This document shows positions 18,610 through 29,651 of a stretch of 29,960 nt of DNA, one piece after another. Made by a program: the position numbers and the translations under genes. The stretch is from Candidatus Fervidifonticultor sextus (GTDB lineage Bacteria > Sysuimicrobiota > Sysuimicrobiia > Sysuimicrobiales > Humicultoraceae). The notes beneath the pieces are model-generated. The model was not told where the DNA came from, did not search any database, and worked only from the letters and a program-made list of their open reading frames with translations. The number at the start of each line of letters is the position of its first letter. The stretch's first letter is position 1. The stretch spans positions 1 through 29,960 of the forward strand of contig JAVKHQ010000032.1 of the NCBI GenBank assembly GCA_031459875.1, given 5' to 3'.

Positions 18610-19212
18610 TCAGGCGCTCATGGCGTCCAGATCGCCGGGCAGATCCACGTCGGCGGCCATGGGCTCGGGGATCGCGATGGCCACGCCCTCCTGGGGGTGC
18701 GCCTCGATCACGCTGCGCGCCCCGCGGTCGCCCTCGAGCGTCAGCAACTCCAAGAACAGGGCACGGTCGAAGTAGACGGGGGGCCCCACCGTCCCGTGGT
18801 AGGCGGAGGCGACAATCCGGCGCCGCTCGGTGACCGCGGTCTCGATGAGGCGGTCGATCACCTCGGCACCAACCAGCGGCTGGTCGGCCAGCAGGATGAC
18901 GACGCCGGTGGCCTCGGGCGAGACGGCTTCGACGCCGGTGCGGATCGAGGACCCCATGCCCTCCGCGGGATCAGGGTTCACCACGAGGCGCACGTCGAGC
19001 CCGTCCAGCAGCGGCCGGTAGACGTCCGCGTGCGCGCCGAGCACGACGATGACTTCGCGGCAGCGTGAGCCCAGCGCGGCCTGGGCGGCGCGGCGAATCA
19101 TCGGCGTGCCCCGGACCGGGATCGCCAGCTTCGGCCGGCCCATGCGGACGCTGGCGCCCGCGGCCAGCACGACCGCCGCGACGAAGGGTTGTGGCGGTGG
19201 TGCCTCGGTCAT
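18610..19212 (-). CDS. mocA: Molybdenum cofactor cytidylyltransferase
   Basis: VLAAGASVRMGRPK, GMGSSI, LADQP, GDRGAR, DVD; located in the cox cluster. Confidence 0.85.
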   Translation of the reverse strand: MTEAPPPQPFVAAVVLAAGASVRMGRPKLAIPVRGTPMIRRAAQAALGSRCREVIVVLGAHADVYRPLLDGLDVRLVVNPDPAEGMGSSIRTGVEAVSPEATGVVILLADQPLVGAEVIDRLIETAVTERRRIVASAYHGTVGPPVYFDRALFLELLTLEGDRGARSVIEAHPQEGVAIAIPEPMAADVDLPGDLDAMSA

Positions 19213-20351
19213 GCCCGGCGCAGCGCCGGGGCATCCTGGGACGGCATGTGGATGGGACCGCGGCGGGTGCGCAGGAAGCCGCCCTCACGACCGCGGGCGA
19301 CCGCCAGGATCTCCGCCAGCGCCGCCAGCGCGATCTCGTCGGGCGTCTCGCTGCCGATGTCCAGCCCCACCGGCCCGAAGATCTGCGCGCGCCGCTGCTC
19401 GTCGATCTCGAGGCCCTCGGCCTCCAGTTCCCGCAGGATCTTCTCGGTGCGTGCCCGCGGGCCGAGCACGCCGAGGTAGGCGGCCGGCGTGGGCAGGAAG
19501 GCGCGCAACAGGTCGCGGTCGTGCAGGTAGTTGTGGGTCATGATCAGCACGTAGGTGTGCCGGTCGGTGGGGACGGCGCGGCCGGCGTCGGGGAAGTCGG
19601 TCCTGACGAACCCGCTGGCGCCGGGAAACCGCTCCGGCGTCAGGAACGCCTCGCGCCGGTCCACGACCAGCACGCGCCAGCCGAGCTGCGCGGCGAAGCG
19701 GACGACCGGGATGGCATCGTGTCCCGCCCCGCAGACGACCAGCCGCTGAGGCGGGTGCAGGATCTCCACGAACAGGCGCAGCGGGCCGGCGGCGGTCTCG
19801 ATCCGATGGGTCTGCGAGCGGAGGTCGCGCATCGCCTGCTGCGCAAGCCGGCCCGCGGCCGCCTCAAGGGCGGCCTCCCCGAAGCGCCCGGCCACGCGGC
19901 CGTCGGGCCAGATGGCCAAGCGCCGGCCCGCTGGAACCTCGGGCGTGCCCTCGATGACGGTGGCCACCGCCACTGCGGCCTCATCGTCCAGTGCGGCGCG
20001 CGCGGCCTGCCACAGCGGGTCGTCGGGGGTGGTGGGTTCGACGAACACCTCGATGGCGCCGTTGCAGCCCAGGCCCAGGCCCCAGACTGCGTCGTCATCG
20101 GCCGTGAGGTCGTAGGTCGTCAGGCGGGGCGTGCCCTGCGCCAGCACCTCGGCGGCCACCACGGCCACATCGCCTTCCAGGCAGCCGCCGCTGATGTTCC
20201 CGGTCTGCCGGCCGGACTGCGTAATCAACAGCCTGGCCCCCTCGCGCCGGTAGGTGGATCCCCGGACGCCGACGATGGTGGCCAGGGCCACCCGCTCCCC
20301 GGCGGCGGAGGCCCAGGCCAGGGCGTCAAGGATGTCAGCCAGTTCCTTCAC
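19209..20351 (-). CDS. XdhC/CoxI-family Moco maturation protein
   Basis: GSTYRREGA, GNISGGCLEGD, GLGCNG, CGAGHD, GLDIGSETPDEIA. Confidence 0.92.
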   Translation of the reverse strand: MKELADILDALAWASAAGERVALATIVGVRGSTYRREGARLLITQSGRQTGNISGGCLEGDVAVVAAEVLAQGTPRLTTYDLTADDDAVWGLGLGCNGAIEVFVEPTTPDDPLWQAARAALDDEAAVAVATVIEGTPEVPAGRRLAIWPDGRVAGRFGEAALEAAAGRLAQQAMRDLRSQTHRIETAAGPLRLFVEILHPPQRLVVCGAGHDAIPVVRFAAQLGWRVLVVDRREAFLTPERFPGASGFVRTDFPDAGRAVPTDRHTYVLIMTHNYLHDRDLLRAFLPTPAAYLGVLGPRARTEKILRELEAEGLEIDEQRRAQIFGPVGLDIGSETPDEIALAALAEILAVARGREGGFLRTRRGPIHMPSQDAPALRRA

Positions 20352-20381
20352 GGCCCGCGCATCTCCCCTGCCAGACGGCTC

Positions 20382-21581
20382 CTACCTCCGCGCCAGATAG
20401 CGCTCCAGCTGCCGCAGGCTCTCCAGGTTGTGGGCGGGGGCGAAGATGTCCACAAAGGGGAGCGCCACCCGCATGCCCTGGCAGATCGGCTCGTAGCCCG
20501 GGCTGGCCAGCAGCGGGTTCAACCAGATCACCCGTGCGGCCCGCCGCCGCACCTCGGCCATGGCGGCCTCCAGCAGGTCGATCTCGCCGGTGTCCCAGCC
20601 GTCGCTGATGATGATCACCACGGTGCGCCCGTCGAGGACCTTCCCTCCGTACTCGTCCAGGAATCGTCGCAGGCTCCGCCCGATCTTGGTCCCACCCGAC
20701 CAGTCCGGGACGCGACGCGCGACGTCGTCGAGCGCCGCATGGATGTCGTCGCGGGCCAGCGACCCGGTGATGCGGCTCAGGCCGGTACTGAAGACAAACG
20801 TCTCGACCCGGCCGATGGCGTGCTGGAGCGCGTAGATGAACTGGATCAGGAAGCGGCTGTAGAGGTCCATCGAGCCGCTCACGTCGCAGAGCAGGACGAC
20901 GCGCGTCTTGGTCAGTTTGCGCTCACGGCGCAAAATCTCCATGACCTCACCGCCGCGGCGCAGGCTCGCCCGCATGGTACGGCGGAGGTCGACCAGGTGG
21001 CCGCGCCGGGCGGTGCGGGTGCGGCGCGACAGGCGGGTCGCCACCCGGCGCGCGATGGCACACACCACCGCCGTGATCTCCTCCAGTTCGTCGGCCGAAA
21101 ACATGCTGAAATCCTTGCGCGTCACCACCTCGACGGGGCTGTAGGCCGGCACCTCCTCCCCGCCTTCGGCATCGGCGTCCTCCTGCTGCCACTCGAGCAA
21201 CACGCGCTCCAGGGCGTGCTGGCCATCAAGTGAGAGGTCGGCGGCGTCCGGCCCGCCGGACGGCCGGCGCTGCTCGTCCGCCGCGCCCCAGAACTCCCAG
21301 AAGACCGCATCGAAAATGCGCTGGGCCTCGGGGCCGCTGGCCAGCACCGCGCGCAGGGCCAGGTAGGCCTCGCGGCGATCTGAGAGATCGACGACCCGCA
21401 GCGCCCGCAGCGCGTCGGCCGCCTCCTGGGCGCCCACCTGCAGGCCGCGCCGGCGCAACAGCCGGCAGAACCCCACCACGTTGGCGACCAGGTCGCCGTG
21501 GCGCGGCCGGCCGAGCCCCCGGCCCTCTACCGCCGCGCCTGCAGGCGCTCCGCGATCTGTGCGACGAGCTGCTGGCTCCAT
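20382..21581 (-). CDS. coxE: VWA-domain CoxE-like protein
   Basis: MIDAS DVSGSM, WSGGT.IG, ISDGWDTG, WLNPL. Start uncertain; ATG 21581 overlaps the coxD 3' end. Confidence 0.88.
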   Translation of the reverse strand: MEPAARRTDRGAPAGAAVEGRGLGRPRHGDLVANVVGFCRLLRRRGLQVGAQEAADALRALRVVDLSDRREAYLALRAVLASGPEAQRIFDAVFWEFWGAADEQRRPSGGPDAADLSLDGQHALERVLLEWQQEDADAEGGEEVPAYSPVEVVTRKDFSMFSADELEEITAVVCAIARRVATRLSRRTRTARRGHLVDLRRTMRASLRRGGEVMEILRRERKLTKTRVVLLCDVSGSMDLYSRFLIQFIYALQHAIGRVETFVFSTGLSRITGSLARDDIHAALDDVARRVPDWSGGTKIGRSLRRFLDEYGGKVLDGRTVVIIISDGWDTGEIDLLEAAMAEVRRRAARVIWLNPLLASPGYEPICQGMRVALPFVDIFAPAHNLESLRQLERYLARR

Positions 21582-22477
21582 GGCCGCCCTTCCCGCTCCA
21601 GCATGCCGAGGCCGTCCAGGATCTGATCCAGCCACTTGGCCCGCACCGCCGCCGCATCGTCCTGGTGCTTGAACAGCACGCCCAGCGTCTCCTCGACCGC
21701 CTCGCGGTCCAGATGATCCCGGTGCAGGGCGATCAGGGCCGCGCTCCAGTCCAGGGTCTCGGCCACACCTGGCGTCTTCTCCAGCCGCAGCCGCCGGATC
21801 ATCTGCATGACGGCACCGATCTGCTCGGCCAGGTGTCCGTTGACGTCCGGGACCTTGCGCCGGACGATCTCGAGTTCCTTCTCGAAGGAGGGGTAGTCGA
21901 TCCACAGATACAGGCAGCGGCGCCGGAGGGCATCCCCCAGTTCCCTGGTGCGGTTACTGGTGAGGACCACGTAGGGAGTCGACGTGGCCGCAATCGTCCC
22001 GATCTCGGGGATGGACACCTGAAAGTCCGACAACACCTCCAGCAGGAACGCCTCAAACTCCTCGTCGGCCCGGTCGATCTCGTCCACCAGCAGGACCGGT
22101 GCCCGATCCCGCGTGATGGCATCCAGCAGCGGGCGCTTGAGCAAGAAGGGCTCGCTGAAGATCTCGGCTTCCCGCTCGGCGACCGGCCGGTCGCTGCCCT
22201 CCGACAGCCGGATGTGGAGGAGTTGCTTCTGGTAGTTCCACTCGTACAGCGCGGTGGTGGCGTCCAGCCCTTCGTAGCACTGCAGCCGGATCAGGTCGGT
22301 CTCCAGCGCCCGGGCCATCACCTTGGCCACCTCGGTCTTGCCGACGCCCGCGGCACCCTCGATCAACAGCGGCTTGCGCAGCGCGATGGAGAGGTAGACG
22401 GCCGTCGCAATCGTCCGGTCGGCGATGTAGCCCTGCGCGGCCAGGAGGTCCTGGATACGGCGAATCTCCGGATGCAT
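21527..22477 (-). CDS. coxD: MoxR-type AAA+ ATPase CoxD
   Basis: GAAGVGKT, RLQCYEGLD, LLVDEID, DALRRRC, PGVAETLDW. Confidence 0.92.
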   Translation of the reverse strand: MHPEIRRIQDLLAAQGYIADRTIATAVYLSIALRKPLLIEGAAGVGKTEVAKVMARALETDLIRLQCYEGLDATTALYEWNYQKQLLHIRLSEGSDRPVAEREAEIFSEPFLLKRPLLDAITRDRAPVLLVDEIDRADEEFEAFLLEVLSDFQVSIPEIGTIAATSTPYVVLTSNRTRELGDALRRRCLYLWIDYPSFEKELEIVRRKVPDVNGHLAEQIGAVMQMIRRLRLEKTPGVAETLDWSAALIALHRDHLDREAVEETLGVLFKHQDDAAAVRAKWLDQILDGLGMLEREGRPWSQQLVAQIAERLQARR

Positions 22478-22543
22478 CCCTCACTCCACTGGACCCGTCG
22501 AAGCGCGAAGGGATGGCGGCGCCATCCCCTCGTGCCCACTCTC

Positions 22544-22572
22544 ATCTTACCCCATGCCCGCGGGCCGGCCAA
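22544..22572 (-). promoter_or_regulatory. Internal promoter for coxD-coxE-xdhC-mocA
   Basis: TTGGCC-N17-TAAGAT, followed by a 12-bp 5'-UTR stem-loop at 22506-22532. Confidence 0.55.
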
Positions 22573-22612
22573 GTCCGATCACCCACGACCCCGCTGGGCC
22601 AGAGGCCGCGGC

Positions 22613-22795
22613 TCACCCCTCCGGTGGAGCCTTCAGGCACGCGAACAGCCCGCCATTGAACTTGCCCTCCTCCAGCACCTCGAGCCGCTGCACATCGGGC
22701 AGGCATCGGGCCACGGCCTGGGGGTCTGTCAGGAACGCCCAGACCCTGTCTCGGGGAGCGTGGATCGCCAGGCTTCCCTGGAAGCGCAGGGCCAC
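22613..22795 (-). pseudogene. coxG: CoxG (SRPBCC) remnant with an apparent in-frame internal deletion (60 aa)
   Basis: CoxG N-terminus (APRDRVWAFLTDP..VARCLP) joined directly to a C-terminal-helix-like tail GLFACLKAPPEG; the full-length paralog in this window is 147 aa. Confidence 0.7.
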
Positions 22796-22796
22796 G

Positions 22797-23768
22797 CTAC
22801 GGCCCCGCCGTCACATAGCGCGCCGGCTCCCGCTCAAAGGTGTGCCGGCAATGGTCGCTGCAGAAGTAGAACCTGACGCCCTCGTGCTCGACGGTATGTC
22901 TCGCCTTCGCGATCACCACGGCCATCCCGCAGATCGGATCGGTGGCCACGGCTTCCCGAAAGACTTCCGTGGCGGGCCGCGTTCGGGACCGGCGGACCTG
23001 GATGATCTCGGCCATGATGCTCACGGCGATCTCTTCGGGGGTGACGGCGCCGATGTCCAGCCCCGCCGGCACCTTGACCCGGTGGACGCCTTCGGCCCGC
23101 CCCCCGCGGCCCCTCAGGTGTGCAAACACCGCCTCCGCGCGCTTCCGGCTGGCGACTAGGCCGATATAGGCAGCCTCGGTGTCCACCAGGGCCTCCAGCG
23201 CCCGCTCATCGTCGGTGCCCATGGTCGCGACGACCGCGTACGTGTCCAGCGTGACCGCACTCCGGAGCCGCTCCAGCGGCAGCCGCTGGTCGGCCTCCAG
23301 ATCGGGCGTCGGCTCCCGGCGCGTGGCCTCCTGGCCGGTCTCGGCCGTTACCACCGCAAACCCCGCCAGACGTCCCAGATGGGCCAGGGATCGGACCAGC
23401 GGGGTCTCGCCGACGAGCAGCAGCCGGGGCCGGGGCAACACGGGCTCAATGTAGATCTCCAGGCTGCCGCCGCTGTGGCAGGTCATCGTGTGGTGGATCA
23501 CGCCTTCCTGTCCGGTGAGGTCGGTGGCGCCCGGGGTCAGGCGGATCAACCGGGGGGCGCCCTCGCGAAGCAGCCGGAGGCCCTCGGTGACGACGATGGG
23601 GTGGGCGCAACTGCCTCCCACCCACCCCTCCAGTGTCCCGTCGGCCCGGACGATGGCCTTCATGCCCGGCCGCGCCGACGCCGGCCGCTCCACCCGCACC
23701 ACGGTAACCAGGGCGAACGGCTCCCCCCTCGCCTGCAACTCCTGTGCCCGCGCCAGCAGGTCGTCCAC
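22797..23768 (-). CDS. XdhC/CoxF-family protein with C-terminal YHS (TRASH) domain
   Basis: GWVGGSC, CHSGG, GLDIGAVTPEEIAVSI; tail DPICGM...FYFCSDHC. Confidence 0.9.
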   Translation of the reverse strand: MDDLLARAQELQARGEPFALVTVVRVERPASARPGMKAIVRADGTLEGWVGGSCAHPIVVTEGLRLLREGAPRLIRLTPGATDLTGQEGVIHHTMTCHSGGSLEIYIEPVLPRPRLLLVGETPLVRSLAHLGRLAGFAVVTAETGQEATRREPTPDLEADQRLPLERLRSAVTLDTYAVVATMGTDDERALEALVDTEAAYIGLVASRKRAEAVFAHLRGRGGRAEGVHRVKVPAGLDIGAVTPEEIAVSIMAEIIQVRRSRTRPATEVFREAVATDPICGMAVVIAKARHTVEHEGVRFYFCSDHCRHTFEREPARYVTAGP

Positions 23769-23778
23769 CGGGACCGCC

Positions 23779-26130
23779 TTATTCCGTCACGCCGCGCTCA
23801 CGCAGCACCTTCCACACCTTCCAGGGCGTGATGGGGATGTCGAGGTGCCGCACCCCCAGGTGCCAGAGGGCATCGATGACCGCGTTGGCGATGGCGGCCG
23901 GCGCGCCCACCGTGGCCGACTCCCCGACGCCCTTCGCCCCCAGAGGGTGATGGGGGGACGGCGTCGTCGTCTTGTCGGTCTCCCAGCGCGGCGTCTCCAC
24001 CGCCGTGGGCAACAGGTAGTCCATGAAACTGCCGCCCCGGATGTTGCCGTCCTCGTCGTAGGTGATCTCTTCGTAGAGGGCCGGGGCCAGCCCCATGGTG
24101 AGCCCGCCGTGGATCTGCCCTTCGACGATCATCGGGTTGATGATGTTGCCGCAGTCGTCCACGGCGACGAACCGCCGGATCTTCACCTCGCCGGTGCCCT
24201 TGTCGATGTCCACCACGCAGATGTAGCTACCGAAGGGGAAGGTCATGTTCGGCGGGTCGTAGTAGGCGACCGCCTCGAGCCCGGCCTCCAGGCCCGGCGG
24301 GTGGTTGGTATAGGCGGCGAAGGCGATCTCCTGGATGGTCTTGGCTCGGTCCGGCGACCCCTTCACGTAGAACTTCCCCCGTTCCCAGGCCAGGTCGTCC
24401 TCATGGGCTTCCAGCAGGTGCGCCGCGATCTTTTTGGCCTTGTCCCGGATCTTCCGGGCCGCCATGGCGCCGGCGGCGCCGGCGGTGGGCGTGCTGCGGC
24501 TGGCGTAGGTGCCCAGCCCGTAGGGCGCGGTGTCGGTGTCGCCTTCCTCCACGACGATGTCGTCCTCAGGGATGCCGAGTTCGTGGGCGATGATCTGGGC
24601 GTAGGTCGTCTCGTGGCCCTGGCCCTGGGACTTGGTGCCGAACCGCGCGACGACCTTGCCGGTGGGGTGGATGCGGATCTCGGCGCTGTCGAACATCTTG
24701 AGCCCCAGGATGTCGAAGGTGTGCGAGGGGCCCGCCCCCACGATCTCCGTGAAGCTGGAGATGCCGATCCCCATGAGTTCCCCGCGCGCGCGCTTCTCCG
24801 CCTGCTCCCGGCGGAGATCAGCATACCCGATCTTCTCCATGGCCTTCCGGAGTGCCGCGTGGTAGTTGCCGCTGTCGTAGGTCCACCCCAGCGGCGACCG
24901 GTACGGGAACGCCTCGGCGCGGATGAAGTTCTTCAGGCGGAACTCTGCCGGGTCCATCCCGAGTTCGTGCGCCATGATGTCCGCCATCCGCTCGATCATG
25001 TACGACGCCTCGGTGACCCGGAACGAACAGCGGTAGGCGATGCCCCCCGGCGGCTTGTTGGTGTAGACCCCGTCCACCTCGGCGAAGGCGGCCTTGAAGT
25101 CGTAGGACCCGGTACAGATGGAGAACAGGCCGGCCGGGAACTTGGAGGGGTTCGCCGCGGCGTCGAACGCCCCGTGGTCGGCGATGGTCTTCACGCGGAG
25201 GGCGGTCAGCGTGCCGTCCCGCTGGGCCGCCAGTTCGGCGGTGATGTGGTAATCGCGGGCGAAGGAGTCCGCCTGGATGTTCTCCATGCGGTCCTCGATC
25301 CACTTCACCGGCTTGCCGGTCAGCACCGAGGCCGCCACGGCCAGGACGTAGCCGGGGTAGACCGGGACCTTGCCGCCGAAGCCGCCGCCGATGTCCGGGG
25401 CGACCACCCGGATCTTGTGCTCGGCCAGGCCCAGGTGGCCGGCTACGAGCGCGACGACGGTGCGGATGGCGTGGGGGGCCTGGGTGGTCATCCACAGGGT
25501 GAGTTTCCCCTCCACGGGGTCCCACCGGGCGACGCACCCGCACGTCTCGATGGACGAGACGTGGATGCGCGGGATGTAGAGGTCCTGCTTGACTGTGACC
25601 GCGGCCTCCTGGAAGGCCCGGTCTGTCGCGGCGCGGTCGCCGACCTCCCAGTGCCAGATGTGGTTGGTCTTCTGCTCCCGATCCTGCCGCAGGATGGGGG
25701 CGTCGGGTTCCAGCGCCTTCCTGGGATCGACGACCACCGGCAGCGGCTCGTACTCCACCTCCACCGCCGCGACGCCATCGGCGGCGATGTACCGGTCCGT
25801 AGCCAGCACGGCGGCGACCTCCTGCGACTGGTAGAGCACCGTGTCGATCGGGAGCACCATCTGGCGGTCGGACATCAGCGTCGGCATCCAGGCCAGGCCG
25901 TACTTGTCCAGATCCCTGCCGGTGATCACCGCCAGCACGCCGGGGATGGCCAGGGCGCCCTCGGCGTGGATCGCCTTGATCCTGGCGTGCGCGTAGGGGC
26001 TGCGCACGATGTCCAGGTAGAGCATGCCCGGCAGCTTGATGTCGTCGATGTACGTGCCCTTGCCGCGAAGGAACCGCGCGTCCTCCTTGCGCTTGACCGC
26101 GTGTCCCATGCCGTGTGCCTGCGTGGCCAT
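23779..26130 (-). CDS. coxL: Aerobic CO dehydrogenase large subunit, form I
   Basis: Active-site motif AYRCSFR (25018-25038), GGGFGGK, QGQGHETT, GAKGVGES. ATG 26130 follows GGAGGTGA. Confidence 0.96.
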   Translation of the reverse strand: MATQAHGMGHAVKRKEDARFLRGKGTYIDDIKLPGMLYLDIVRSPYAHARIKAIHAEGALAIPGVLAVITGRDLDKYGLAWMPTLMSDRQMVLPIDTVLYQSQEVAAVLATDRYIAADGVAAVEVEYEPLPVVVDPRKALEPDAPILRQDREQKTNHIWHWEVGDRAATDRAFQEAAVTVKQDLYIPRIHVSSIETCGCVARWDPVEGKLTLWMTTQAPHAIRTVVALVAGHLGLAEHKIRVVAPDIGGGFGGKVPVYPGYVLAVAASVLTGKPVKWIEDRMENIQADSFARDYHITAELAAQRDGTLTALRVKTIADHGAFDAAANPSKFPAGLFSICTGSYDFKAAFAEVDGVYTNKPPGGIAYRCSFRVTEASYMIERMADIMAHELGMDPAEFRLKNFIRAEAFPYRSPLGWTYDSGNYHAALRKAMEKIGYADLRREQAEKRARGELMGIGISSFTEIVGAGPSHTFDILGLKMFDSAEIRIHPTGKVVARFGTKSQGQGHETTYAQIIAHELGIPEDDIVVEEGDTDTAPYGLGTYASRSTPTAGAAGAMAARKIRDKAKKIAAHLLEAHEDDLAWERGKFYVKGSPDRAKTIQEIAFAAYTNHPPGLEAGLEAVAYYDPPNMTFPFGSYICVVDIDKGTGEVKIRRFVAVDDCGNIINPMIVEGQIHGGLTMGLAPALYEEITYDEDGNIRGGSFMDYLLPTAVETPRWETDKTTTPSPHHPLGAKGVGESATVGAPAAIANAVIDALWHLGVRHLDIPITPWKVWKVLRERGVTE

Positions 26131-26135
26131 GGCGA

Positions 26136-26642
26136 TCACCTCCCCGCCCCGGCGGGTGCCGGCGCGCTGCGCAGCTTCTCGGCGGCGTCCTTGATCGCCT
26201 CGACGATGTTCACGTATCCGGTACACCGGCAGAGATTGCCCGAGATCGCCCAGCGAATCTCCGCCTCGGTCGGGTTGGGGTTCCGCTGGAGGAGGGCGTA
26301 GCCGGTCATCATCATCCCCGGCGTGCAGAACCCGCACTGGAGGCCATGCTTCTCATGGAACCCTTCCTGGATCGGATGGAGCTGGCCGTCTGTGGCCAGA
26401 CCCTCCACGGTCATGAGGTCCCGCCCGTCGGCCTGGACGGCAAAGATCGTACAGGACTTCACCGGCCGGCCGTCCATGAGCACGGTGCAGGCCCCGCAGT
26501 TGGTCGTGTCGCACCCGATGTGGGTGCCCGTGAGCCCCAGCACCTCCCGGAGGAAGTGGACGAGCAGCAGCCGCGGTTCCACCTCGGCCTGGTGGGCCGT
26601 GCCGTTGACGGTCACCGAGATCCGGCTGACCACCTCACTCAC
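26136..26642 (-). CDS. coxS: CO dehydrogenase small (2Fe-2S) subunit
   Basis: [27 protein letters not shown]. Confidence 0.95.
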
Positions 26643-27807
26643 CCCCCGTGGCCCGCTCCAGGGCCCGCCTCAGCGCCCGAGCGGTCAGCACCCTCACGAC
26701 GTCGCGTTTGTACTCCGCCGGCCCACGCAGGTCGGAGGCCGGGTCGGACTCCTCGGCGGCCGCCTGTGCCGCCTGCGCGATCGCGGCCTCGTCGGGCGGC
26801 TGCCCGCGCAGGACCTGCTCCGCGCGCCGGGCGCGTAAGGAGGTGGCTCCCACGTTGCAGAGGCCGATCCCCACCTGGTCGCACCTGCCCCGGGCGTCCA
26901 GGAGGAGGGAGACCCCGACGGCGGCGATGGCGAAGTCGCCCACCTTGCGCTCCAACTTGAGGTAGGCCCCGCCGCTGCGAGCCGGCGGGCGCATCACCCG
27001 AATCTCGGTCAGGAGCTCGTCGGGTTCGAGGGCGGTCGCAAACGTGCCGACCAGGAAGTCGTCGATCCCCATGGTGCGCGTCCCGCGGGGGCCGGCGAGC
27101 ACCACCGTCGCCCGCGAGGCCAGCATTGCCGCCCCCCAGTCTCCGGCCGGGTCGGCATGGGCCAGCGACCCGCCGATGGTGCCCATGTTGCGGACCAGCG
27201 GGTCGGCGATGACCCGGGCAGTGTCGGCCAGGAGCGGGTAGTGGGCCCGGATGAGATCGGAGGCTTCGAGGTCGGCGTGCCTGGTCAGCGCCCCGATGCG
27301 CAGGGTGCCATCCACCTCCCTGATGTAGGCGAGGTCCGGGATGCGGTTCAGGTCGATCAGGTAGCGGGGGGCGGCCAGGCGGAGCTTCATCAGCGGGATC
27401 AGGCTGTGCCCGCCGGCCAGCGGCTTCGCCTCGGTCCCATAGAGCTGAAGGAGGCCGACCGCTTCCGCGACGGTCCTTGGCGCGAAATAGTCGAACCGGT
27501 CCGGTATCATCCCACCCCACCCCCTGTGCCGCAGTCGCCGTGGCGCGATCCTCACGCCGGAGGCCAGATGGGGCCGCGCGCGGTCTGCCGCGCGGCCCAA
27601 CTCGAATACCGCCTTTCCCAGCCCGTATCGCCTGGACCGAGGAGAATACTCGACGAAGCCGAATCGCTCCAGGGTCTTGAGGATGGCGAAGCAGGTGCTC
27701 TTGTTCAGGGCGAGCGCCCGGTAGATCTGGGCGAGGGTGGCTCCCCGGCTGCCCCGGCGCTCCAGGTACCGGAGGATCCTCACCGTCCTGGCCACAGCAG
27801 GTACCAC
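26635..27807 (-). CDS. coxM: CO dehydrogenase medium (FAD) subunit with an in-frame N-terminal IclR-type HTH
   Basis: CoxM begins at ATG 27510 ([31 protein letters not shown]). The upstream 99 codons are in frame with no stop and read as an IclR HTH. Confidence 0.9.
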
Positions 27808-27892
27808 TGACGCCCCCCCGCGTCGGAGTCACCTGCAGACCCAGCAAAGTCAATCGTTCTGTGGAGAGAACAGTCGGGGCCGGGTTGGGACC

Positions 27893-27921
27893 ATAATCTG
27901 CCACGGATGGCAGATTGTCAA
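27893..27921 (-). promoter_or_regulatory. cox operon promoter with overlapping operator palindrome
   Basis: TTGACA-N17-GATTAT; inverted repeat AATCTGCCA-N4-TGGCAGATT (27895-27916) fills the spacer. Confidence 0.75.
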
Positions 27922-27969
27922 TCCCCAAAACACAGCGCTGCCAGGGAGGATCGGCCCGAGGCCGGTTCC

Positions 27970-28413
27970 CTATGTGCGGGCGCGGACCTCGCGCTCCAGG
28001 GCCTTGAAGAACTCGCCGGCCAGCTGCTTGGCCACCCCGCCGAAGAGCCGGTGGCCGACGCTCATCAGCACCCCGGTCACCTGGGCGTCGCCGGTGTAGC
28101 GCACCAGGGTCGCCTCGCCCTGCGCCTCCAGGGTCAGCACCCCGGTGGCCTTGATCGTTCCGGGCCGGCCGCTGCCTTCCACGATCAGGGTCATCGTCTG
28201 GGGCGGGGTCTTGTCGGTGATGCGGGCCGTCCCCTGGTAGGCCCCGCGCACCGGACCGACGGCCAGCTCAATGGTGGCGTCGTAGGTGTCCTGACCTGTG
28301 GGCTTGAGCGCCTTCAGGCCGGGCGTCGTCCTGGTCAGGACGTCGGGGTCGTTCAGCGCGGCCCAGACCCGGTCACGGGGCGCGGGCAGCAGGTGCTGGC
28401 CTTCGATCTTCAT
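27970..28413 (-). CDS. coxG: CoxG-family SRPBCC protein
   Basis: APRDRVWAALNDPDVL...PG, VGPVRGAYQG, VGHRLFGGVAKQLAGEFF. Confidence 0.9.
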   Translation of the reverse strand: MKIEGQHLLPAPRDRVWAALNDPDVLTRTTPGLKALKPTGQDTYDATIELAVGPVRGAYQGTARITDKTPPQTMTLIVEGSGRPGTIKATGVLTLEAQGEATLVRYTGDAQVTGVLMSVGHRLFGGVAKQLAGEFFKALEREVRART

Positions 28414-28485
28414 CCCATGCCTCCTCCATGCCTGCGGCGGAGGCCGCCAGCCGCCTGGCTCGCTGCATCCGCCGCGTCCCCTCGC

Positions 28486-28513
28486 ATTGTACCGGGCTGC
28501 AGGCGGGTGTCAA
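28486..28513 (-). promoter_or_regulatory. Near-consensus sigma70 promoter of coxG
   Basis: TTGACA-N16-TACAAT. Confidence 0.75.
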
Positions 28514-28535
28514 ACCTCCGGCGCCGCGCGGGGGT

Positions 28536-29651
28536 CTAGCGCGCGATGCGGAGGATCCGGTCGGCCCCCCCGCCGTTGCTGGTCGAGACGTAGAGCGCGC
28601 CGTCGGGGCCGACGGCCACGTCGCGCAGCCGACCAAAGGCATTCGTCAGCAGTGCCTGCGACTGCACCACGTCCCCGGTGCCGGGACCGGCCAGCCGCAA
28701 TCGGTGAAGGCTGGCGCCTCGCAGGCAGGTGAAGAGCAGGTCTCCGCGCCAGTCGGGGAACATCGGGCCGGTCACGAAGGTGGCCCCGGACGGTGCGCAT
28801 GTCTCTGGATAGAAGAGGAAGACAGGGTCCACGTAGTCCGCCGCCTCGCCGCGGCCGACGATGACCGGCCAGCCGTAGTTCCGGCCGGGCAGGATGCGGT
28901 TCACCTCGTCGTGGGACTGCGGGCCGTGCTCGGTGGCGTAGAGGACTCCGGAGGCGTCCCAGGCCAGCCCCTGCGCGTTGCGGTGGCCCAGGGTGTAGAC
29001 GAGGGAGCCGGGGTAGGGATTGTCCGCAGGGACCTGCCCCGTGCGCGTCAGGCGGATGATCTTGCCGGCCAGCGAGCCGGGGGACTGGGAGACTGACGGA
29101 TCGTTGGCATCACCGGTCCCGGCGTAGAGCATCCCGTCCGGGCCGATCTTCAGGCGGCCGCCGTTGTGCCGGTCGAGGGAGCCGGGGATGCGATCCAGGA
29201 GCACGCGGTCGCGGACGGCGGTGTGGCCCGACACGCGCAGGCGCTCGATCCGGTTCGCGGGCGCGCCGAACTCCATGTGGGTGTAGAACACGTAGAGGAA
29301 CCCGTTGGCGTCGAAGTCCGGATCCGCTACGAGCCCCAGGGCGCCGCCTTCCCCCGATGCGCAACAGGTCGGGAGGGTGATCACCGGCGCCGGGTGCAAC
29401 ACGCCGCTCGCGATGACGCGGATCTGCCCGGAATCGCGCTGGGTGAAGAACAGCCGGCCATCGGGGACAAAGGCCAGCGCCCAGGGGATGTCCAGCCCGG
29501 ACGCCAGCGTGGACACCTGGAGGCCGAGGCGGAGGAGCTCGATCCGGCTGCCGATGGGCCTCAGGCCCAGCCGCAGGCGCTCGGCCCGGCCGTACGCCAG
29601 GACGGTCAGCGCGACGAGGAGGATCGCAGCGACCGCCGCAAGACGTTGCAC
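28536..29651 (-). CDS. PQQ-dependent soluble aldose sugar dehydrogenase (YliI/Sdh family)
   Basis: PWALAFVPDG, HNGGRLKIGPDG, GHRNAQG, EHGP, NYGWP, GRLRDV. GTG 29651 has a GGAG SD; alternative start ATG 29687. Confidence 0.92.
   Translation of the reverse strand: MQRLAAVAAILLVALTVLAYGRAERLRLGLRPIGSRIELLRLGLQVSTLASGLDIPWALAFVPDGRLFFTQRDSGQIRVIASGVLHPAPVITLPTCCASGEGGALGLVADPDFDANGFLYVFYTHMEFGAPANRIERLRVSGHTAVRDRVLLDRIPGSLDRHNGGRLKIGPDGMLYAGTGDANDPSVSQSPGSLAGKIIRLTRTGQVPADNPYPGSLVYTLGHRNAQGLAWDASGVLYATEHGPQSHDEVNRILPGRNYGWPVIVGRGEAADYVDPVFLFYPETCAPSGATFVTGPMFPDWRGDLLFTCLRGASLHRLRLAGPGTGDVVQSQALLTNAFGRLRDVAVGPDGALYVSTSNGGGADRILRIAR

Follow-up and report, generated by a model that had tools for sequence, protein, structure and literature searches.

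An IclR-type DNA-binding head fused in frame to CoxM: a candidate autoregulator of a CO dehydrogenase operon in Sysuimicrobiota

Introduction

Enzyme-regulator fusions, also called trigger enzymes, carry a DNA-binding domain and an enzyme in one open reading frame (ORF). PutA is a single-chain flavoenzyme with a ribbon-helix-helix domain, and BirA and NadR are further enzyme-regulator fusions. The genes for aerobic CO oxidation (cox) are regulated by proteins such as RcoM and CutR, and to our knowledge the control of the molybdenum-copper (Mo-Cu) dehydrogenase in aerobic CO oxidisers is known for few cultured bacteria, in all of them through separate sensor-regulators. Here we describe a cox locus in which the flavin subunit gene itself begins with a regulator-type DNA-binding domain. 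The locus lies in a stretch of 29,960 nucleotides (referred to below as the window) from Candidatus Fervidifonticultor sextus (assembly GCA_031459875.1, contig JAVKHQ010000032.1).

To the two groups of systems named above can be added archaeal RbkR, an enzyme-regulator fusion according to the available text of PMC5397151, and CoxC of Afipia carboxidovorans, described in the available text of PMC11347149 as an MHYT-domain regulator of cox genes. Fervidifonticultor and the related Geohabitans are assigned, in the available part of PMC11604079, to the phylum CSP1-3/Sysuimicrobiota. A first-pass annotation of the window, made from the sequence alone, had proposed that an IclR-type domain is joined to CoxM and could act on the transcription of its own operon, and we examined the architecture, distribution, selection and leader sequences of this gene and its relatives.

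Results

The ORF joins an IclR winged helix to a complete CoxM

The first-pass annotation described a 390-aa ORF from GTG 27807 with an IclR-type winged helix-turn-helix (HTH) in its first 75 or so residues, an Arg-rich linker, a complete CoxM from ATG 27510 and no IclR effector domain, and each of these elements was confirmed. The ORF listing gives a single 390-aa frame, and upstream of the GTG the frame is open for 7 codons only. Pfam assigns aa 4-55 to HTH_IclR (PF09339; E = 1e-10, 41.7 bits against a cut-off of 22), aa 104-271 to FAD_binding_5 (PF00941; E = 8.7e-51) and aa 281-381 to CO_deh_flav_C (PF03450; E = 3.4e-24); aa 100-390 are CoxM, and no match to IclR_C (PF01614) was found in the ORF by Pfam down to E = 0.1. 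A sequence search of the PDB pairs aa 2-76 with the IclR-family regulator 5tjj_A (E = 1e-14). The CoxM part matches CutM (1ffu_C; E = 6e-75), whose residues 1-285 correspond to aa 100-385, and CoxM (1n5w_C), whose residues 1-286 correspond to aa 100-386, colinear over the full length. Because aa 100 pairs with residue 1 of both CutM and CoxM, ATG 27510 (Met100) corresponds to the canonical CoxM start. An AlphaFold2 model of the fused protein, built on a 76-row alignment, has a mean predicted local distance difference test (pLDDT) score of 87. In this model aa 1-70 form a confident winged helix (block means 83-96), with NKSTC in the recognition helix; the CoxM part is also confident, and the Arg-rich linker (aa 71-99) falls below 50 and is predicted to be disordered.

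Distribution of the fusion

The domain-architecture search proposed for this protein was positive: PF09339, PF00941 and PF03450 occur together in 17 of the best 120 database clusters listed, at 59-100% identity, while 100 of these 120 are ordinary CoxM of 289-320 aa and 3 carry other HTH families. The full fusion, in frame and without stops, is present in 8 of 41 genomes of relatives, and in 10 of 94 genomes of the phylum, spanning three families and seven genera; in all counts G000 is the window's own 3.05-Mb genome. Public metagenome-assembled genome records with the fusion are named Candidatus Fervidifonticultor octavus, Ca. F. secundus, Ca. Geohabitans tengchongensis and 'Armatimonadetes bacterium', and metagenome contigs added seven fused loci. 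Since this junction recurs in many independent assemblies, an assembly artefact is excluded. For the comparisons below we used a set of 16 distinct fused loci. Seven loci were left out of it: L016-L019, L021 and L022, which duplicate L002-L007, and L031, which is nearly the same as L030. L014 and the paralog locus L045 derive from the unpublished genome G022. The N-terminal 110 aa were also used for a profile search against 1.84 billion representatives, in which the fused family is masked by CoxM representatives at 50% clustering. Apart from proteins of ordinary IclR length, it returned only P0124 (99 aa) and P0133 (45 aa), both of which are described below.

The three clusters with other HTH families, P0097, P0098 and P0105 (453-458 aa; 12, 6 and 3 members), have a transposase-type HTH in front of a complete CoxM, with HTH_23/28/29/32 at aa 35-138 of P0097. 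These clusters could represent a separate fusion event, or else an error of gene calling beside an insertion element; CoxM may thus have acquired a head on more than one occasion.

A conserved dyad in the leader

The dyad GTTCT-N6-AGAAC is located 54-79 nt upstream of the start codon in all fused loci. It has no arm mismatch in any of the 16 loci and is the sole invariant block in the leader alignment, in which the -35 and -10 elements, a G-run and the start region are also conserved (the -35 hexamer TTGACA is aligned in 13/16 loci, with TTGACG in one further locus, and the G-rich run stands at the same place across the fused loci). When up to two arm mismatches are allowed within 350 nt upstream, every locus has exactly one dyad, and the seven loci left out of the set carry it too. 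The synonymous divergence (dS) between fused loci reaches about 1 or more, and the flanks of the dyad have diverged. The strict dyad is found at 3 places in the 3.05-Mb genome, where composition predicts about 0.5, and the looser GTTC-N8-GAAC at 47. Just one of the 16 HTH_IclR places in G000, that of the fused gene, is preceded by GTTC-N8-GAAC within 400 nt.

With the -10 hexamer ending at 27893 the predicted transcription start lies near 27886. This places the dyad at about +15 to +30, where a bound protein would stand in the way of RNA polymerase. Near-perfect symmetry around a centre of just 2 nt is seen in the dyads of L007, L008 and L032; as so short a centre is unable to serve as an RNA hairpin loop, selection acts on symmetry of the double-stranded DNA.

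A second inverted repeat, at 27895-27916 in the spacer between -35 and -10, was considered as a general operator and rejected, as it is absent from fused loci beyond L002. In the window it consists of 9-bp arms, AATCTGCCA and TGGCAGATT, around a 4-nt centre, and in L002, the closest relative, the arms are 6 bp.

Full-length IclR paralogs share the dyad

Outside the fused family the head is most similar to full-length IclR proteins, at 52% identity over the head for P0121 and 44-52% for paralogs within the phylum. We examined 16 of the 33 listed non-fused places (L036-L051), and 15 of these paralog loci contain at least one exact GTTC-N8-GAAC. Altogether there are 20 such sites in 49,340 nt, whereas the G000 rate would give about 0.8; 19 of them are positioned just upstream of the iclR reading frame. 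All seven paralogs examined for domains and neighbours (L036, L039, L040, L043, L045, L047 and L049) have HTH_IclR plus IclR_C, and all are followed directly by genes for a 2Fe-2S small subunit and then a Mo large subunit. The sites and the operon context together place this IclR subfamily at the head of molybdenum-hydroxylase operons and link it with the GTTC-N8-GAAC dyad type, a candidate regulon motif for such operons in the phylum. Two sites spaced 19-20 bp apart are present in 9/16 paralog loci, compared with none of the 16 fused loci. IclR-family regulators bind dyad operators as dimers or tetramers, and many of them regulate their own genes. In this family the IclR_C domain mediates tetramer formation, and the single site of the fused loci fits the loss of this domain.

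We also modelled aa 1-78 as a homodimer. The score was 0.85, against 0.00 for the best of three controls, with at least 95% of contacts agreeing between runs and partner pLDDT of 92 or more. Of 30 proteins solved as one-chain pairs, 20 reach the mark used for this score, as does 1 of 23 single-chain structures. Dimers of IclR DNA-binding domains have already been solved, and the pass may reflect no more than likeness to them.

Selection on the head and its loss in relatives

Pairwise Nei-Gojobori ratios of nonsynonymous to synonymous substitution (dN/dS) among the eight genome loci point to purifying selection on the head. Values for codons 2-68 are 0.09-0.37 (27 pairs with a defined value), close to the 0.14-0.28 of the CoxM part, and values for the variable part of the linker (codons 69-92) are 0.3-0.96 in distant pairs. 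The NKSTC of the recognition helix is kept in 17/17 fused proteins, and conservation within the head is highest in the DNA-reading helix (NKSTC..LKTL). Judged by these comparisons and by its recurrence, the ORF is a genuine, selected gene fusion. In-frame indels among the fused proteins were discarded as evidence, since proteins called fused are in frame by construction.

Among the findings named in advance as refuting the proposal were a stop or frameshift between the HTH and coxM in relatives, and a full-length iclR at the same position. The first is seen in a minority of relatives, in which four heads have decayed and a fifth has been split by a frameshift; the second is seen in none of the relatives examined. 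L009 has lost head residues 1-29 and has a frameshift ahead of the linker, and L024 has a head with an internal deletion and a frameshift. In L033-L035 an out-of-frame deletion of residues 40-84 has reduced the head to the 45-aa ORF of P0133, which is present on 23 contigs. P0124 (two members) is a split form, in which head and linker run in a different frame and terminate immediately ahead of the coxM start; its recognition helix departs from the others at two residues that are invariant elsewhere. L010 retains only linker traces and half a dyad, and L011 and L012 have neither head nor dyad. One P0124 member is on a contig of length 2930, equal to that of the contig listed for the 291-aa CoxM P0023.

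These claims of loss are limited to loci whose DNA was read. We set aside as unreliable a count made on a CoxM tree of 128 rows, which had given at least 11 gains or losses, because 291-aa entries may be short gene calls or cut contigs; the CoxM of two such entries, P0038 and P0035, is identical to that of the fused P0010 and P0011.

A second start inside the fused gene

The suggestion that long and short isoforms arise from two starts is strengthened by the alignments, in which both starts look functional. An 11-base Shine-Dalgarno sequence, AGGGGGTGGGG, stops four bases short of ATG 27510 and is invariant across the fused loci. It also precedes coxM in the unfused orthologues L009-L012, there with stop codons further upstream, and more distant orthologues have GGAGG-type sites in its place. 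In the long frame the sequence is translated, and its synonymous positions are strongly biased: Arg95 is AGG in 15/16 loci and Gly96 is GGG in 16/16, compared with 12.8% of Arg codons and 32.8% of Gly codons elsewhere in these 16 genes. The constraint therefore acts on the nucleotides, and the ribosome-binding site of coxM has been kept inside the fused frame. Ordinary 291-aa CoxM is thus probably also made from ATG 27510, the equivalent of which is the sole possible CoxM start in lineages with decayed heads. A metatranscriptome run compared with the window gave matches of 35-55 bases with 3-4 mismatches each, mostly diverging beyond, and is uninformative on expression.

A GCAGGT...ACCTGC pairing at 27790-27845, present also in L002 and L003, is predicted to form a hairpin around the G-run and the GTG, which could limit translation of the long form. 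This hairpin over the Shine-Dalgarno-like run and start of the long isoform folds in L001-L003, and structures vary among the 16 loci.

Autoregulation and its alternatives

Self-regulation, as first suggested for this gene, is the best reading of the comparative data, because a conserved dyad is present in the gene's own leader and the same dyad type is found upstream of the closest paralogs. Specifically, we propose that the long isoform represses its own operon at GTTCT-N6-AGAAC, and we put the probability of this negative autoregulation at roughly 55%. The fusion would have arisen when an iclR gene heading a molybdenum-hydroxylase operon lost its effector domain and became joined to coxM through the coxM 5' leader, such that the former coxM Shine-Dalgarno sequence is now translated as Arg-Gly-Trp-Gly. 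Two products are predicted, a minor long HTH-CoxM from GTG 27807 and ordinary CoxM from ATG 27510, with the short form supplying most of the CoxM. The long form would pair through its IclR-type domain, bind the single dyad and block transcription of coxM, coxS, coxL and the accessory genes. As a guess, release would most plausibly come about through capture of the CoxM moiety into CoxLMS complexes, or through reduction of the flavin as in PutA.

Several observations weigh against this proposal. The fusion is patchily distributed (10/94 genomes in the phylum, and just 2 of 6 in the window's own genus), and the head has decayed or been split at least five times with coxM left intact, and is dispensable in some lineages. 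Perfect dyad arms persist in L009 and L024 without a head, and five of the ten genomes with the fusion have, in addition, a full-length paralog as a potential binder of the site. The head and the dyad adjoin in the DNA, and their co-occurrence is therefore in part a matter of shared descent. With the effector domain lost, a response to a ligand is not evident. Finally, the M subunits are far apart in solved (LMS)2 enzymes, and it is therefore uncertain whether two heads could pair within one holoenzyme.

A more ambitious version of autoregulation is that the CO dehydrogenase is its own CO or redox sensor, a PutA-like switch in a trace-gas enzyme. The head would leave the operator once CoxM is incorporated into CoxLMS and its flavin adenine dinucleotide (FAD) is reduced by CO turnover or, alternatively, once the enzyme is drawn to the membrane with CoxG, and the threshold would be set by the ratio of long to short isoforms. 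We regard this version as speculative and unlikely.

A different explanation is that the dyad is used by another regulator, for example a full-length IclR paralog acting in trans, with the fused head only competing or forming mixed dimers (in a dominant-negative or anti-repressor manner), or binding elsewhere. The five genomes with a second match of the same HTH subfamily (G010, G012, G019, G020 and G041) could accommodate this, as could the dyad arms that outlast the head in L009 and L024; G011, the genome of L009, has such a paralog. The remaining five fused genomes (G000, G002, G006, G029 and G061) have the fused copy only (E <= 1e-10), however, and in G000, G002, G006 and G029 the dyad is perfectly kept; moreover the decayed heads are still recognisable, and survival of the dyad beside them may just reflect recent loss. 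We judge action through another regulator to be improbable, slightly more so than the sensor version.

It could also be that the head has no function and is what an iclR deletion left behind, in frame by chance and slowly decaying, and that ordinary CoxM alone matters. A degraded iclR remnant had been raised from the outset as the alternative to a working fusion, and as an account of origin it probably stands, given the loss of the effector domain; as an account of the present state it does not agree with a head that selection has kept in three families. Decay or splitting on at least five independent occasions with coxM intact, the retained internal Shine-Dalgarno sequence and ATG, the patchy distribution and the likelihood that a GC-rich linker of 29 codons is often stop-free by chance are all as expected of a leftover. 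A decaying remnant would not be expected to show head dN/dS values near those of CoxM at a dS of up to about 1 or more, with the linker much less constrained, nor invariant recognition-helix residues, nor a dyad that is invariant in 16/16 loci, and we give this explanation lower odds again.

Least likely of all is re-use of the winged helix without DNA, as a pairing or tethering module for higher-order assembly or for contact with CoxG or the membrane, since the modelled self-pairing of aa 1-78 and the adjoining coxG gene are in keeping with such a role but the DNA-reading helix is the best conserved part of the head and the leader dyad matches the sites of the IclR paralog family.

The surrounding cox cluster

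The fused gene sits in a complete form I cox cluster in the order coxG, fused gene, coxS, coxL and accessory genes (Table 1). AYXCSFR is the active-site loop signature of form I CoxL, and the CoxL translation contains AYRCSFR. A consensus promoter scan of 27700-28600 found two minus-strand sites, where 0.0 are expected from shuffled sequences. One of these, TTGACA-17-GATTAT, falls between coxG and the ORF, and so the earlier description of the fused gene as the first gene after the promoter holds, with coxG preceding it on the same strand behind a promoter-like site of its own. As that site is near-consensus, coxG and coxMSL may be separate transcription units.

The upstream neighbour in the window is coxG; in L003 (G010), L009, L010, L013 and L014, a second CoxM paralog, 45-48% identical, is located directly upstream of the fused gene or orthologous coxM. 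Among the accessory genes, the XdhC/CoxI-type maturation protein (22797-23768, minus strand) has a C-terminal YHS domain at aa 276-321. YHS is a small domain of metal-binding type, and here it could be relevant to the supply of copper for the Mo-Cu site.

Table 1. Features of the cox locus in the window (positions in the 29,960-nt stretch; aa, amino acids of the long ORF).
Feature	Position	Strand	Details and basis
Long ORF, HTH(IclR)-linker-CoxM	26635..27807	-	390 aa, GTG start
IclR-type winged HTH and start of IclR linker helix, aa 1-70	27598..27807	-	Pfam, PDB, AlphaFold2, dN/dS
Arg-rich linker, aa 71-99, variable part fast-evolving	27511..27597	-	pLDDT < 50, dN/dS
CoxM (FAD subunit), 291 aa from ATG 27510, likely short isoform	26638..27510	-	Pfam, PDB
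Internal Shine-Dalgarno of coxM, AGGGGGTGGGG	27515..27525	-	Arg-Gly-Trp-Gly in long frame
Candidate operator GTTCTCTCCACAGAAC, arms GTTCT/AGAAC	27856..27871	.	GTTCT-N6-AGAAC; GTTCTCTCCACAGAAC on coding strand; 48 nt 5' of GTG 27807
Sigma-70-like promoter of fused gene	27893..27921	-	TTGACA (27916-27921), 17-nt spacer, GATTAT (27893-27898); 10/12 hexamer matches
G-run GGGGGGG, Shine-Dalgarno-like, 6 nt 5' of GTG 27807	27814..27820	-	Sequence; role inferred
coxG, upstream of fused gene, same strand	27970..28413	-	Pfam COXG
Promoter-like site upstream of coxG	28486..28513	-	TTGACA-16-TACAAT, near-consensus, 11/12 matches
coxS (2Fe-2S subunit), start overlapping coxM stop	26136..26642	-	Pfam Fer2_2, Fer2
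coxL (Mo-Cu large subunit), start ATG 26130 inferred	23779..26130	-	Pfam Ald_Xan_dh_C, MoCoBD_1, MoCoBD_2
Downstream accessory genes	18610..23768	-	XdhC/CoxI-type with YHS, AAA (CoxD-like), VWA_CoxE, XdhC/CoxF-like, MobA-like nucleoside triphosphate transferase

Discussion

The gene described here encodes a structural enzyme subunit with a DNA-binding head from a regulator family, and its likely operator can be read from comparative data. In full-text literature searches, judged by title and abstract, we found no published description of an HTH_IclR-CoxM architecture. The word IclR does not occur in the available main text of the paper on this phylum (PMC11604079), where the passages on CO dehydrogenase concern only the anaerobic CO dehydrogenase/acetyl-CoA synthase. 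In public records the fused proteins appear only as 'FAD binding domain-containing protein' or 'carbon-monoxide dehydrogenase medium subunit'.

With a 16-bp site, a 99-aa head and two candidate isoforms, the system is a directly testable case of an enzyme subunit that may regulate its own operon. The stepwise origin of the fusion also seems to be visible, in that an iclR gene would have lost its effector domain and come to read through the ribosome-binding site of the next gene, and later losses of the head are recorded as well. In scope the fusion is confined to an uncultured lineage and has been repeatedly lost; for the field it is surprising.

How the protein is best classified follows from comparison with its two parent families. 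Its N-terminal winged HTH is like that of IclR-family regulators (5tjj_A, P0121 and the paralogs at L036-L051), and like the paralogs it has a GTTC-N8-GAAC dyad upstream of its own gene and heads a molybdenum-hydroxylase operon. Unlike them, it has a complete CoxM in place of the IclR_C effector and oligomerisation domain, and one site rather than the two that many paralog loci have. It is not a full member of the IclR family, as the defining effector domain is absent. The match to CoxM and CutM (1n5w_C and 1ffu_C) is colinear from residue 1 over the full length, and the coxM-coxS-coxL order, the AYRCSFR loop and the downstream accessory genes are those of form I CO dehydrogenase; the difference is a 99-aa N-terminal extension with a DNA-binding domain on a protein that is otherwise, in solved or typical examples, 287-296 aa long. 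By sequence and context the fused protein is thus a full CoxM.

The known regulators of aerobic CO oxidation, RcoM, CutR and (from the available description) CoxC, control coxMSL-type operons, as we propose for fused CoxM. These are separate proteins with dedicated gas- or ligand-sensing domains, and none is part of a structural subunit. In this respect the fused protein is closer to PutA-type trigger enzymes, with which it shares a flavoprotein and a DNA-binding domain in one open frame and a candidate operator in its own promoter region. It differs from PutA in having an IclR-type winged HTH rather than a ribbon-helix-helix, in carrying it on one subunit of a three-subunit Mo-Cu enzyme rather than on a single-chain enzyme, in probably being made alongside a head-less isoform, and in being known from sequence alone.

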